A DNA stretch of 28,160 bases from a virus (Duplodnaviria; Heunggongvirae; Uroviricota; Caudoviricetes): the IMG/VR virus record IMGVR_UViG_2879765931_000002; one strand, given 5' to 3'. Shown here piece by piece: positions 12,662 to 17,575 of the stretch (the stretch's first letter is position 1; each line of letters begins with the position of its first letter). The position numbers and the translations under genes were made by a program. The notes under the pieces were generated by a model that worked only from the letters and a program-made list of their open reading frames with translations, did no database searches and was not told where the DNA came from.

Positions 12662-13426
12662 ATGGCAAAACCGGACTGGGAGGCCATCGAATCGGCATAC
12701 CGGGCCGGAGTCCTTAGCCTCCGTGATATAGGCGAGAAATACGGCGTTACAGAAGGGGCTATCAGGAAGAGGGCCAAAAAGCTTGATTGGGCACGCAGTG
12801 GCGGTACGCAGGTTTGCAAAAATGGTACGCAAAAAAGGAAAGTGCGTACCAGCAGAAAGCCTGCCATTACTGGCCTTACACAAAAAAGTACGCAACTAAA
12901 AACAGAATCTACACCGGATACGAAACCGATACGCGGAATGCGTACCGATCCCCCGACTAACCCATTCCAACCCGGTAACCAGCAGGCATTAAAACACGGT
13001 GGTTATGCCCGTCGCCTTCTGCTCAAAGATGAGGTGATAGAGGACGCTAAAGCGTTGACGCTCGAGGACGAATTATTTCGCCTTCGTGCTAACAACCTTG
13101 TCGCTGCAGAGAATATTGGTCGGTGGTTGGTGTCGCTGGAAGATGCTAATGGGGACCAGGAAAGGAAGATGCTGATTGAAAATATCAGCGCCGCCGAGAA
13201 AGCAATGATGCGCAATACAGTTCGTATTGAGTCCATCGTTGGCACGCTTGCGACGGTAGGAAAAATATTTGCTGATACAGCCTACCGCAAGGCCGCCACT
13301 GATAAGGTGTCTCTGGAGGCTGATCGTCTTCGCCGTGATGCAGGTATTGATGATGGCAATGGAGAGCGTGACCTCAATGACTTCTACTCTGACATCCAAA
13401 CCGACGCTGAATCCGGCTTTACGTAG
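12662..13426 (+). CDS. Phage terminase small subunit (N-terminal HTH)
   Basis: MAKPDWEAIESAYRAGVLSLRDIGEKYGVTEGAIRKRAKKLDW is a typical terminase small-subunit HTH; immediately upstream of, and overlapping, the large-subunit start. Confidence 0.7.
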   Translation: MAKPDWEAIESAYRAGVLSLRDIGEKYGVTEGAIRKRAKKLDWARSGGTQVCKNGTQKRKVRTSRKPAITGLTQKSTQLKTESTPDTKPIRGMRTDPPTNPFQPGNQQALKHGGYARRLLLKDEVIEDAKALTLEDELFRLRANNLVAAENIGRWLVSLEDANGDQERKMLIENISAAEKAMMRNTVRIESIVGTLATVGKIFADTAYRKAATDKVSLEADRLRRDAGIDDGNGERDLNDFYSDIQTDAESGFT

Positions 13427-14135
13427 TTTCTGGACTATGCGGGCACGTAACAAAGTGCTTTATGGTGGTCGGTCATCGTCAAAATCATGGGATGCCGCTG
13501 GCATTGCCATATTTCTGTCGAATAAATACACCCTGCGTTTTTGTTGTGCCCGTCAGATCCAGAATAAAATCGAAGAGTCGGTGTATACCCTGCTCAAAAT
13601 TCAGATAGACAGGTTTGGTCTGCGGCACCGTTTCCGTATTCTGAACAACAAAATCATTAACCGGGTTACTGGCTCGGAATTTGTTTTTTATGGATTATGG
13701 CGCAACATCGAAGAAATTAAGTCACTGGAGGGGATCGATATGTTGTGGCTGGAAGAAGCCCACGCACTGACGGAATACCAGTGGAAAATTCTGGAGCCAA
13801 CGATCCGTAAAGAGGGTTCGGAATGCTGGTTCATATTCAACCCCGGACTTGTTACTGATTTCGTCTGGCGCAACTTCGTTGTTGATCCGCCCGAAGGCAC
13901 TCTCATCCGCAAAATTAACTATGACGAAAATCCGTTTCTGTCTGACACCATGCTTAAGGTTATCGACGCGGCGCGACGCCGTGATCCGGATGGTTTTAAA
14001 CATGTGTATGAGGGCGTTCCGGAGTCTGATGATGATGCGGCAATTAGACTGGCCCCCTGAATCTCCAGACAACCAGTATCACTTATTTAAGTGATAGTCT
14101 TAATACTAGTTTTTAGACTAGTCATTGGAGAACAG

Positions 14136-14501
14136 ATGATTGATGTCTTAGGGCCGGAGAAACGCAGACGGCGTACCACACAGGAAAAGATCGCAATTGT
14201 TCAGCAGAGCTTTGAACCGGGGATGACGGTCTCCCTCGTTGCCCGGCAACATGGTGTAGCAGCCAGCCAGTTATTTCTCTGGCGTAAGCAATACCAGGAA
14301 GGAAGTCTTACTGCTGTGGCCGCCGGAGAACAGGTTGTTCCTGCCTCTGAACTTGCTGCCGCCATGAAGCAGATTAAAGAACTCCAGCGCCTGCTCGGCA
14401 AGAAAACGATGGAAAATGAACTCCTCAAAGAAGCCGTTGAATATGGACGGGCAAAAAAGTGGATAGCGCACGCGCCCTTATTGCCCGGGGATGGGGAGTA
14501 A
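14136..14501 (+). CDS. insC: IS2 InsC (copy B)
   Basis: Identical protein to copy A. Confidence 0.9.
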
Positions 14502-15364
14502 GCTTAGTCAGCCGTTGTCTCCGGGTGTCGCGTGCGCAGTTGCACGTCATTCTCAGACGAACCGATGACTGGATGGATGGCCGCCGCAGTCGTCACACTG
14601 ATGATACGGATGTGCTTCTCCGTATACACCATGTTATCGGAGAGCTGCCCACGTATGGTTATCGTCGGGTATGGGCGCTGCTTCGCAGACAGGCAGAACT
14701 TGATGGTATGCCTGCGATCAATGCCAAACGTGTTTACCGGCTCATGCGCCAGAATGCGCTGTTGCTTGAGCGAAAACCTGCTGTACCGCCATCGAAACGG
14801 GCACATACAGGCAGAGTGGCCGTGAAAGAAAGCAATCAGCGATGGTGCTCTGACGGGTTCGAGTTCTGCTGTGATAACGGAGAGAGACTGCGTGTCACGT
14901 TCGCGCTGGACTGCTGTGATCGTGAGGCACTGCACTGGGCGGTGACTACCGGCGGCTTCAACAGTGAAACAGTACAGGACGTCATGCTGGGAGCGGTGGA
15001 ACGCCGCTTCGGCAACGATCTTCCGTCGTCTCCAGTGGAGTGGCTGACGGATAATGGTTCATGCTACCGGGCTAATGAAACACGCCAGTTCGCCCGGATG
15101 TTGGGACTTGAACCGAAGAACACGGCGGTGCGGAGTCCGGAGAGTAACGGAATAGCAGAGAGCTTCGTGAAAACGATAAAGCGTGACTACATCAGTATCA
15201 TGCCCAAACCAGACGGGTTAACGGCAGCAAAGAACCTTGCAGAGGCGTTCGAGCATTATAACGAATGGCATCCGCATAGTGCGCTGGGTTATCGCTCGCC
15301 ACGGGAATATCTGCGGCAGCGGGCTTGTAATGGGTTAAGTGATAACAGATGTCTGGAAATATAG
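14459..15364 (+). CDS. insD: IS2 InsD (copy B)
   Basis: Identical protein to copy A. Confidence 0.9.
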
Positions 15365-16108
15365 GGGCAAATCCAGCAATCATCAAACTGTCTTGGATAG
15401 AAGCCGCAGTGGATGCGCACAAAACGTTAAATTTCGAACCCAGTGGAAGAAAGCGTATTGGCTTTGACGTGGCTGACAGTGGTACAGATAAGTGCGCTAA
15501 CGTTTACCGTCACGGATCCGTTGTTTTCTGGGCCGACGAATGGAAGGCCAAAGAAGATGAATTACTGAAGAGCTGCCAGCGTACTTATCAGGCGGCGCTG
15601 GAGCGTGAAGCAGATATTGTTTACGACTCTATCGGTGTTGGTGCGTCTGCCGGTGCTAAATTCTCTGAAATTAACGCTGACCGGAAGAGCGAGAACGCAT
15701 ACGCGCGACGTGTGAATTACCAGAGGTTTAACGCCGGTGCTGGTGTGCATGAGCCAGATGACGAGTACAACGGCATCCCCAACAAAGACTTTTTCGCAAA
15801 TCTTAAGGCTCAGGCATGGTGGCTGACCGTTTCAGAAATACGTTTAACGCCATTAACAACGGAGAACAGTATCCTGTGGATGAGCTGATCAGCATAGATT
15901 CTCGTTGTCCGTTGCTTGAAAAGCTGAAACTGGAACTGACAACACCTCATCGTGATTTCGACCGTAACGGACGTGTGATGGTCGAAAGTAAAAAAGACCT
16001 CGCAAAACGCGAGATACCGTCACCAAACGTTGCTGATGCATTCATTATGGCCTTCGCGCCAATCGATACATCGCTGGATATCTGGGAACAGCTGGGGAGA
16101 CAGGCCTG

Positions 16109-17575
16109 ATGGCACGAAACAAACAAGCCCTGCGGCGAACTGTGCAGGCCACAGCTGATGGTTATGAGAATTTTATTGCCCGAGTAGGGATGCAGACACC
16201 TAACCAGCACTCAGCATCCACCTACCGGGCTAATTTCACCAGTCGTAACCGCATGCTGGTGGAATGGTCCTATCGTTCATCCTGGATCATCGGCGAAGCA
16301 GTCGATGCTATCCCGGATGATATGACCCGCAAAGGCATTCGCATCACTTCGGAAATTGATGCAAAAGATCGTGGCATTCTCGAATCACAACTGGATGAGT
16401 TGCAAATCTGGGATGCGCTGAATGACGTGCTGAAATGGTCGCGCCTCTACGGCGGCGCGGTGGGTTTCATCATGATTGAGGGGCAGGCACCAATGACCCC
16501 GCTGCGACCCGAAACCATCGGTAAGGGCAAGTTTAAGGGGATTCTCCCGCTCGACCGCTGGATGGTCGACCCGGCACTGACCCGCCGCATTAAAGATATG
16601 GGGCCGGACCTGGGTAAACCTGAGTTTTACGATGTGGTGACCACAGCAACGGGAATTCCTGCCTGGCGCATTCATCACAGTCGCCTGATTCGCTTTGATG
16701 GCGTCACGTTGCCATTTCAGCAGAAGATGACCGAGAACGAATGGGGAATGTCGGTTGTAGAGCGTATCTGGGATCGTCTTACCGCGTTCGACAGCGCTAC
16801 TGTCGGCGCGGCGCAGCTGGTCTACAAGGCGCATTTGCGTACCTACAGCGTGGAGAAGCTACGCGAGCTTATCGCACTTGGTGGTCCTGCGTATGAAGCG
16901 TTGCTGAAGAATATCGACCTGATTCGACAGTTCCAGAGTAATGAAGGCATGACGCTCATGGACTCGCGGGATAAGTTTGAAACCCATCAGTACAGCTTCA
17001 GTGGTCTGGATGACATCCTTTCGCAGTTTGCAGAACAGATTAGTGGCGCTGTTGGTATCCCACTGGTGCGGTTGTTCGGACAGTCCCCGAAAGGATTTTC
17101 TACCGGTGATGCAGACCTTGCCAACTATTACGATCGCATCAGTTCGTTGCAGGAGAGGCGTTTACGTCTTCCGGTGCGGCGGATACTGGACATCATGCAT
17201 CGTTCGGAACTTGGCAAGCCGCTGCCGGACGATTTCACGTTTGAGTTTAACCCGCTCTGGCAAATGTCTGATGTCGATCGCTCAACGGTGGCGTTAAACA
17301 CCACCAACGCAATCAGTACGGCGCTGGGTGATGGTCTGATGACACTGAAAGCCGCTATGACTGATTTGCGAGAAAATTCTGACGTAACCGGCATAGGGGC
17401 ATCCATTACCAACGAGGACATCGAGAATGCCGAAGATGAAGCGCCGCCCGGCATCGGCGAACCTGATGACGAACCGCAGGAGCCGTCAGGCGGAAATCCG
17501 GTATCGAACCAGCCTACGCAGGATAGCGAGGGCGGTCGGAGACATCGTAAATGGTCGCTACGATGGTTCAAATGA
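16109..17575 (+). CDS. Phage portal protein
   Basis: 488-aa ORF directly after the terminase, ATG overlapping the terminase stop (TGATGG); acidic C-terminal tail. Size and position fit a portal. Confidence 0.75.
   Translation: MARNKQALRRTVQATADGYENFIARVGMQTPNQHSASTYRANFTSRNRMLVEWSYRSSWIIGEAVDAIPDDMTRKGIRITSEIDAKDRGILESQLDELQIWDALNDVLKWSRLYGGAVGFIMIEGQAPMTPLRPETIGKGKFKGILPLDRWMVDPALTRRIKDMGPDLGKPEFYDVVTTATGIPAWRIHHSRLIRFDGVTLPFQQKMTENEWGMSVVERIWDRLTAFDSATVGAAQLVYKAHLRTYSVEKLRELIALGGPAYEALLKNIDLIRQFQSNEGMTLMDSRDKFETHQYSFSGLDDILSQFAEQISGAVGIPLVRLFGQSPKGFSTGDADLANYYDRISSLQERRLRLPVRRILDIMHRSELGKPLPDDFTFEFNPLWQMSDVDRSTVALNTTNAISTALGDGLMTLKAAMTDLRENSDVTGIGASITNEDIENAEDEAPPGIGEPDDEPQEPSGGNPVSNQPTQDSEGGRRHRKWSLRWFK

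Follow-up and report, generated by a model that had tools for sequence, protein, structure and literature searches.

The stretch of viral DNA analysed here (28,160 nucleotides, referred to below as the window) carries a gene for a large terminase subunit (terL) that cannot be read as one open frame, which raises the question of whether an originally intact gene was disrupted here, by how many events and in which order. We are highly confident that terL belongs to a defective prophage located next to dcuC and pagP in an ipaH island of the Shigella flexneri chromosome, and that it was destroyed by two independent mutations. The window matches an S. flexneri chromosome exactly, and one complete-genome locus is 100% identical to it across 20.5 kb. 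The island that holds terL also contains an ipaH effector gene.

The terL locus is a pseudogene of a PBSX-family large terminase

The limits of terL given in the first-pass annotation, 13377..16109 on the plus strand, proved to be its true start and stop. Between them the gene is split into three fragments (Table 1). The N-terminal fragment matches Pfam Terminase_3 (E 7.9e-39, residues 24-213) and runs into an IS2 element, ending in DDDAAIRLAP before a stop codon at 14058..14060. The middle fragment lies in the +1 frame relative to the N-terminal one and aligns with the nuclease domain of Sf6 gp2 (PDB 4idh, 5c10).

Removing IS2 together with one GCAAT copy and adding back 7 bp restores an open frame of 467 aa, in agreement with the earlier claim of a once-intact gene hit by a simple IS2 insertion. 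The restored protein differs at 2 of 467 residues from the terminase of an E. coli prophage (WP_038341124.1), which is itself intact, 467 aa long and 99.3% identical to the window gene at the DNA level. The two genes are separated by three substitutions over 1.4 kb, two of which fall within the N-terminal 668 nt, and by a single gap, the missing 7 bp. V122M is an amino-acid change private to the window copy.

Comparison of the reconstructed protein with the PBSX/Terminase_3 family gave a family match, with TIGR01547 scored on the intact ortholog two residues different (142.6 bits, cut-off 105.05). The ortholog also aligns with the Sf6 gp2 structure 4idh over residues 10-449 (E 1.8e-78). Residues 212-453 match solved terminase nuclease-domain chains (8dkr_B, E 1.4e-65; Sf6 gp2 5c10, E 3.6e-24), and Pfam Terminase_3C stayed below its cut-off (20.1 against 26.7 bits). 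A P-loop-like GGRSSSKS and a Walker B-like LWLEEA were spotted by eye in the translation. The family score, the ATPase domain and the RNase H-like nuclease domain are those of the PBSX family; the uninterrupted frame is missing, since IS2 breaks it at codon 223 and the 7-bp deletion at codon 369. The locus is a PBSX-family large-terminase pseudogene.

Gp2 of Shigella phage Sf6 is a distant relative and a different gene. It shares the ATPase-then-nuclease layout, and its gene is likewise placed between the small-subunit and portal genes. Unlike gp2, the window terL has IS2 inserted at the boundary between its two domains and a frameshift in the nuclease domain, and a functional protein is not expected from it. 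The nearest phages are Klebsiella temperate phages, Edwardsiella GF-2 and Acinetobacter AB1; the terminases of the Klebsiella phages (e.g. ST340-VIM1phi10.1) are intact and about 93% identical in protein sequence to the intact E. coli ortholog.

Table 1 Features of the terL locus and its surroundings in the window
Feature	Position	Strand	Remarks
IS2 copy A	9059..10389	+	direct orientation with copy B; flanks CTGAG and CTGGC, without matching target duplication
Presumed small terminase gene	12662..13426	+	254 aa, intact; end overlaps terL start; role inferred from position
terL N-terminal fragment	13377..14044	+	codons 1-223, ATPase domain; Terminase_3 match
GCAAT target-site duplication, left	14040..14044	.	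intact genes have one GCAAT
IS2 copy B	14045..15375	+	complete, 1331 bp; same orientation as terL
GCAAT target-site duplication, right	15376..15380	.	sequence repeat flanking IS2 copy B
terL middle fragment	15381..15816	+	rest of codon 223 to codon 368; first part of nuclease domain
Remaining TGGTGGC unit	15817..15823	+	two tandem units in intact genes, one here
terL C-terminal fragment	15824..16109	+	to residue 467 and stop; out of frame with middle fragment
Portal protein	16109..17575	+	488 aa, full length; Pfam Phage_portal_3 (annotated DUF1073), E 3e-106; no indel against intact relative
Mu F-like head morphogenesis protein	17427..18209	+	full length; Pfam Phage_Mu_F, E 1.5e-18; no indel
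DUF2213 protein, putative scaffold	18213..19433	+	406 aa, full length; Pfam DUF2213, E 2.5e-41; no indel
gp24-like head cement gene	19437..19793	+	118 aa against 168 aa intact; 17-bp deletion between 19783 and 19784
Major capsid protein	19938..20879	+	313 aa, full length; Pfam Major_capside (PF09950; annotated DUF2184), E 3e-85; no indel
IS600 copy	21120..22383	-	terminates prophage homology; repeats with three other copies in window

IS2 inserted at the boundary between the two terminase domains

The element within terL had been described as a GCAAT-flanked IS2, and its limits, the duplication and the IS2-specific transposase matches all agree with that description. Both proteins exceed the cut-offs of the NCBIfam IS2 models (TnpA, 276.4 bits against 229; TnpB, 726.7 bits against 597). 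IS2 elements are about 1.33 kb long and have imperfect terminal inverted repeats; the ends of copy B can be aligned across about 40 bp, with mismatches and a single gap. Its orfA (14136..14501) and orfB (14459..15364) overlap, with an AAAAAAG slippery site at 14453 within the overlap. In length, terminal repeats, 5-bp duplication and the orfA/orfB arrangement with its A6G site, copy B is an IS2 of the IS3 family. It is 99.8% identical to RefSeq-annotated IS2 and differs from copy A at one position in 1331 bp.

In intact E. coli orthologs and in the S. dysenteriae copy of the gene, GCAAT is single and the frame reads through it. IS2 transposed into codon 223, at the boundary of the ATPase and nuclease domains, generating its usual 5-bp duplication, and the element with its duplication parts the two domains by 1336 bp.

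A tandem 7-bp unit has been lost from the nuclease domain

The second frameshift, which the first-pass annotation had placed about 440 bp past IS2 near a TGGTGG repeat, is real and corresponds to the loss of one 7-bp tandem unit. Alignment to the intact ortholog gives TGGTGGCTGGTGGC in the reference and a single TGGTGGC in the window. The loss throws the sequence out of frame from codon 369, which lies within the nuclease domain. It also creates an ATG at 15816, through which the tail of terL becomes callable as a 97-aa ORF starting with MVADRF. Loss of a TGGTGGC unit is the outcome that would be expected of replication slippage. Both units are kept in all 41 E. coli complete genomes with terL.

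The terL lesions are fixed in S. flexneri, as judged from eight complete-genome loci and from contig counts. The right IS2 junction, the 7-bp deletion and the 17-bp deletion of the cement gene are present in all eight loci, and the left IS2 junction in seven; in one strain, IS2 copies A and B have recombined. Proteins identical to the terL fragments were found on hundreds to at least 1000 contigs. Furthermore, three contigs from independent assemblies of public read sets start downstream of IS2 and encode both the exact 97-aa terL tail and the 118-aa cement product, and thus carry both deletions. No observation spoke against either terL lesion.

The head module is not lambda-like and would not package DNA

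The portal, scaffold and capsid ORFs, which had been reported as full length, are so, as is the Mu F-like gene, and none has an indel relative to the intact relative. The gene upstream of terL gave no match in Pfam and NCBIfam searches; related phages of Klebsiella and Edwardsiella carry a counterpart annotated as terminase small subunit. The module is otherwise damaged: the 17-bp deletion in the cement gene is a third lesion, and IS600 ends the prophage after the capsid gene. Matches of the cement protein to XM1_gp53_minor_capsid and Phage_cement span just the N-terminal part of each Pfam profile. Homology to intact relatives stops at 21119, at the IS600 border (21119/21120), and no tail genes are present in the window past this element. 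The early region of the prophage is broken up by IS600, IS2 and an IS911-like element.

We infer from the genes, on what we consider sound grounds, that this head module would be unable to package DNA: neither lesion alone leaves a full-length terminase, and therefore no packaging motor would be made.

The assignment of the module as lambdoid does not hold. Its proteins match Terminase_3, Phage_portal_3, Phage_Mu_F, DUF2213, Phage_cement/XM1_gp53 and Major_capside instead, and the lambda-type head proteins (gpA terminase, gpB portal, gpE capsid) were not found in it. Judged by these sequence matches, the module is of the Sf6 gp2 type and myovirus-like, not lambda-like. E. coli prophages have the same head-gene order. 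Downstream, the intact relative carries genes annotated as DUF3383, DUF3277 and baseplate proteins, which we read as contractile-tail genes. Lambdoid (Rac-like) character is confined to the early and lysis regions of the relatives.

Order of the lesions and alternative explanations

The terL copy of S. dysenteriae Sd197 (CP000034) differs from that of S. flexneri at only 3 of 1712 sites and also has a single TGGTGGC unit, as do at least six of the seven S. dysenteriae complete-genome loci. However, it has no IS2 at GCAAT; instead, it carries an IS600 (duplication AAC) and an inverted IS2 (duplication GATCC) about 130 bp deeper in the gene, and the Sd197 remnant is cut by IS1 within the portal gene. 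Because S. dysenteriae shares the 7-bp loss and has other IS insertions, the deletion probably came first, with the IS2 insertion following later and in S. flexneri alone.

The order remains uncertain, and the main competitor, which we consider rather unlikely while still giving it real weight, is that slippage removed the unit independently in the two species, in which case the deletion would not inform the order. The deletion could have arisen twice because, apart from it, not one substitution unites the two copies, and both the neighbouring genes and the lysis-side IS junctions differ. The S. flexneri prophage lies beside dcuC/pagP, the S. dysenteriae one beside IS1 followed by rlmC, ybjO and pot genes; on the lysis side the two remnants share no IS junction, the end of an IS911-like element being present in both but at points about 480 bp apart. 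The T at 13658 of the window was considered as a shared Shigella substitution and rejected, because more distantly related E. coli copies have it as the ancestral state. Slippage readily affects tandem repeats; with two units only, however, such loss should be rare, and all 41 E. coli complete genomes with terL retain both. The Shigella copies are separated by few differences, and a single origin of the deletion, with later transfer or rearrangement, is the simpler explanation.

It seems improbable to us that the loss of terL was selected rather than neutral, with convergent IS hits disabling packaging, locking in an effector-carrying prophage and sparing the host. What invites the idea is the presence of three independent IS2 sites and one IS600 within a 1.4-kb gene, across S. 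flexneri, S. dysenteriae and E. coli FDAARGOS_943, together with the ipaH effector gene in the same island. The terL of FDAARGOS_943 has IS2 at another site (duplication GCTGG) and lacks the 7-bp deletion; a same-site IS2 in E. coli was rejected on this record, the only E. coli one covering the whole query. However, the sampling is biased, the loci having been found through a search for terL plus IS2; Shigella genomes hold hundreds of IS copies, according to Hawkey et al. 2020 (PMC7373316); and the adjoining phage genes are damaged as well. We hold it equally doubtful that terL of this effector-associated prophage family is a preferred or selected target of inactivation in Shigella-type lineages, S. 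flexneri and S. dysenteriae having shared the prophage, by then disabled, ahead of the later IS insertions. If true, it would mean the convergent locking-in of a virulence-linked prophage.

The possibility that the frameshift is a sequencing or assembly error, leaving only the IS2 insertion as real, was raised in the first-pass annotation, and one assembly by itself would be insufficient to exclude it. We now regard it as very improbable. The frameshift is the loss of a 7-bp repeat unit and not a single-base change, and a base-calling error is therefore implausible, the clean loss of a 7-bp unit being atypical for base calling. Moreover, the same single-unit state recurs in independent assemblies (the eight S. 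flexneri loci, the S. dysenteriae loci and the three read-set contigs), and the exact 97-aa tail, an ORF that exists only through the deletion, is encoded on 184 contigs, S. dysenteriae accessions among them. An error is effectively refuted. Finally, programmed ribosomal frameshifting that would still yield the C-terminal part has nothing in its favour except the frameshift itself and can be dismissed as extremely improbable: it is contradicted by the single uninterrupted frame of intact orthologs, no slippery heptamer was seen in GCATGGTGGCTGACC, and IS2 cuts off the upstream part of terL regardless.

Decay of a prophage terminase in Shigella

The damage to terL is genuine, yet it is gene decay of an ordinary sort that is well documented for Shigella and already known biology. 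Hawkey et al. 2020 (PMC7373316) describe how IS1, IS2, IS4, IS600 and IS911 expanded, and genes were lost, in all Shigella species. The terL insertion is common to S. flexneri strains, like about one third of the IS sites in that work; its SNV phylogenies left out phage regions, and the prophage terL locus is absent from the portions of its text considered here. Our literature searches found no paper on this locus, and the main text of the S. flexneri 5b genome paper mentions neither ipaH nor prophage nor IS2. The gene is one among many casualties of insertion-sequence expansion, alongside the frameshifted cement gene, the missing tail genes and the fragmented early region.

The window terL offers a clean textbook case of transposition with target duplication and of tandem-repeat unit loss within one gene. 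All three terL fragments derive from a single pseudogene; public records list them as 'bacteriophage protein' or 'hypothetical protein'. The 7-bp deletion common to the two species could be used as a marker to follow this prophage through Shigella lineages. Going by its gene content, the prophage remnant would be no source of transducing or infectious particles.

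Two lesions in the large terminase gene

The large terminase gene (terL) of this decayed Shigella flexneri prophage is interrupted at codon 223 by the second of two IS2 copies in the window (copy B), and a 7-bp deletion starts past codon 368. The two ORFs of copy B (121 and 301 aa) score 276 and 727 bits against the NCBIfam IS2 TnpA and TnpB models, exceeding the respective cut-offs of 229 and 597 bits. An AAAAAAG site lies within the ORF overlap at 14453, and imperfect inverted repeats of ~40 bp form the ends of the element. Copy B is 99.8% identical to RefSeq-annotated IS2 and differs from copy A at one of 1331 positions. 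Once IS2 and one GCAAT were taken out, the frame was open across the site, in agreement with the simple insertion with target duplication proposed by the first-pass annotation.

We searched 5,426 complete E. coli genomes and found uninterrupted orthologs of 1404 bp annotated as 'PBSX family phage terminase large subunit'. Aligned to the FDAARGOS_944 gene, terL without IS2 and one GCAAT showed three substitutions and a single gap, where FDAARGOS_944 reads GGCA TGGTGGC TGGTGGC TGACC and the window GGCA TGGTGGC TGACC. In the second lesion, a two-unit 7-bp tandem repeat has thus been reduced to a single unit, at 15817..15823; a second frameshift had indeed been proposed at a TGGTGG repeat. With IS2 removed and the frameshift mended, terL yields an open 467-aa frame matching the intact E. 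coli ortholog WP_038341124.1, from which it differs only by V122M and A431D, the window carrying the common state at residue 431.

The intact ortholog scores 142.6 bits (cut-off 105) against TIGR01547, the PBSX-family large terminase model, and the N-terminal window fragment alone matches Pfam Terminase_3 (E 7.9e-39, residues 24-213). Among solved structures, the closest is that of Shigella phage Sf6 gp2 (4idh; E 1.8e-78, residues 10-449), and isolated nuclease-domain chains begin aligning at ~residue 212. Based on these matches, IS2 splits terL between its ATPase and nuclease domains, and the deletion falls inside the latter. Judged from its sequence, the gene cannot give rise to a full-length TerL enzyme, and DNA packaging would be lost as a consequence of the broken terL.

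Distribution of the lesions across genomes

We looked up the exact sequences of the terL fragment proteins and counted the contigs that encode them. The 227-aa N-terminal fragment, with its IS2-derived end, occurs on 461 and the 97-aa tail on 184. For the middle fragment (179 aa, running from IS2 into the shifted frame) the count is at least 1000. The majority of the records bear the name Shigella flexneri, strain 2a 301 included. The eight S. flexneri complete-genome loci fetched all share the 7-bp deletion and the IS2 junction on the right, and seven also have the left one; CP026871.1 is identical to the window across 20,540 bp. The deletion also occurs in three separately assembled contigs from public read sets, all beginning downstream of IS2. 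The sharing of junctions and deletion across S. flexneri loci and separate assemblies answers the concern of a sequencing error and stands in for the read pile-ups proposed by the first-pass annotation.

The S. flexneri locus from LR213452.1 carries a single IS2, flanked on the left as copy A is and on the right as copy B is, and has lost window positions 10390..14044 (the lysis remnant, the DedA gene, the small terminase and the N-terminal part of terL). Recombination between the two direct IS2 copies would be expected to yield this arrangement.

Order of events

Because the ATG of the 97-aa ORF comes into frame only once the 7 bp are gone, this ORF is a diagnostic marker of the deletion. The same ORF is encoded by S. 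dysenteriae complete genomes, Sd197 among them, where terL is uninterrupted across the GCAAT site. S. dysenteriae terL (for example CP000034.1; ~2956..5700 of locus L006) instead holds two other insertions ~130 bp further into the gene than GCAAT: an IS600 with duplication AAC and, 21 bp away from it, an IS2 in inverted orientation with duplication GATCC. Without its insertions it differs from the window terL at 3 of 1712 sites, and the 7-bp gap is common to both. Both repeat units are kept in all 41 complete E. coli genomes having that stretch. The simplest reading is that the 7-bp deletion came earlier and the IS insertions later, in a lineage-specific manner. Two independent slippage events, one in S. 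flexneri and one in S. dysenteriae, could also account for the shared gap: no substitution unites the two Shigella copies, their chromosomal neighbour genes differ, and their lysis-side junctions with an IS911-like element lie ~480 bp apart.

The S. dysenteriae remnant is cut by IS1 after 106 portal codons and adjoins rlmC, ybjO and pot genes. One of the 41 E. coli genomes, FDAARGOS_943, has a third, independent IS2 at nucleotide 453 of terL (14454..15784 of locus L001; duplication GCTGG). Its prophage is nearly complete in other respects; the MuF-like gene has an internal stop, and IS1 is present in several copies.

Head module and surrounding island

Compared with intact relatives, 15376..21119 contains just two indels, the 7-bp deletion and a 17-bp deletion at 19783/19784 (TCCGGTATACGTTGTCG in intact relatives). 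The latter frameshifts the gp24-like cement protein gene (19437..19793; 118 aa vs 168 aa) and is fixed in the S. flexneri loci checked (8/8). The first-pass annotation had not listed this deletion. It had correctly described the portal, putative scaffold (DUF2213) and capsid ORFs as full length, as is the MuF-like gene, but its designation of a lambdoid head module does not hold, none of the head proteins belonging to a lambda-type family in Pfam; the lambdoid part of the relatives is the early region only. By terminase, the nearest phages are temperate Klebsiella phages (~93% protein identity to the intact E. coli ortholog), Edwardsiella GF-2 and Acinetobacter AB1.

Contractile-tail and baseplate genes appear to follow in the intact E. 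coli relative. Homology to the relatives stops at 21119, and the tail genes are thus absent from the window. On this gene content, terL is one of several lesions, and particles would be impossible even given a working terminase.

The window is an ipaH island, whose features are listed from left to right in the table.

Features of the ipaH island in window coordinates
Feature	Coordinates	Strand	Remarks
Partial ipaH-family type III effector E3 ubiquitin ligase gene	1..1812		Runs off left edge; NCBIfam IpaH_Shig, 562.7 bits
DUF4376 phage-remnant ORF	1992..2636	opposite to ipaH	Next after ipaH
Rac-like early-gene fragments (RecE N-terminal piece, Rha, YdaE)			Interrupted by IS600 (three copies)
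IS600, first three of four copies in 28 kb	2611..3875, 4801..6037, 7298..8561
IS2 copy A	9059..10389		Flanks CTGAG, CTGGC; no matching target duplication
IS3-family remnant resembling IS911	~10390..11620		Abuts IS2 copy A
Lysis-gene remnant			Between IS remnant and DedA-family gene
Intact DedA-family (VTT domain) membrane protein gene	11955..12467	minus	Between lysis and terminase genes
Presumed small terminase subunit ORF	12662..13426	plus	254 aa; end overlapped by terL start
terL	ATG 13377 to stop 16107..16109	plus
IS2 copy B	14045..15375		1331 bp; GCAAT at 14040..14044 and 15376..15380
Fourth IS600	21120..22383		Right of head genes
Mu-like prophage remnant	22381..24907		Followed by dcuC, pagP
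Repressor-like ORF with Mu DNA-binding domain	24398..24907

The second IS600 has an internal deletion of ~25 bp that shortens orfB to 263 aa, and also marks the end of the N-terminal piece of RecE (exonuclease VIII; 4175..4819). Other S. flexneri strains part from the window just right of IS2 copy A (10389/10390) or further right, which places a rearrangement breakpoint at this element. The DedA-family gene, kept in FDAARGOS E. coli relatives and most Shigella remnants, looks like phage-carried cargo. In the Mu-like remnant, a MuA-type transposase ORF (544 aa, minus strand; Pfam DDE_2, E 1e-134) abuts the neighbouring IS600.

Discussion

According to the findings reported in PMC7373316, IS1, IS2, IS4, IS600 and IS911 have expanded in all Shigella species, gene loss is extensive and partly convergent, and about one third of IS sites are common to S. 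flexneri lineages. The repeated hits in terL, in a set of loci gathered by searching with terL itself, may reflect either selection or chance. The terL fragments are already in public records as separate proteins, and the double break of terL is a correct finding but one of ordinary, already-explained prophage decay.
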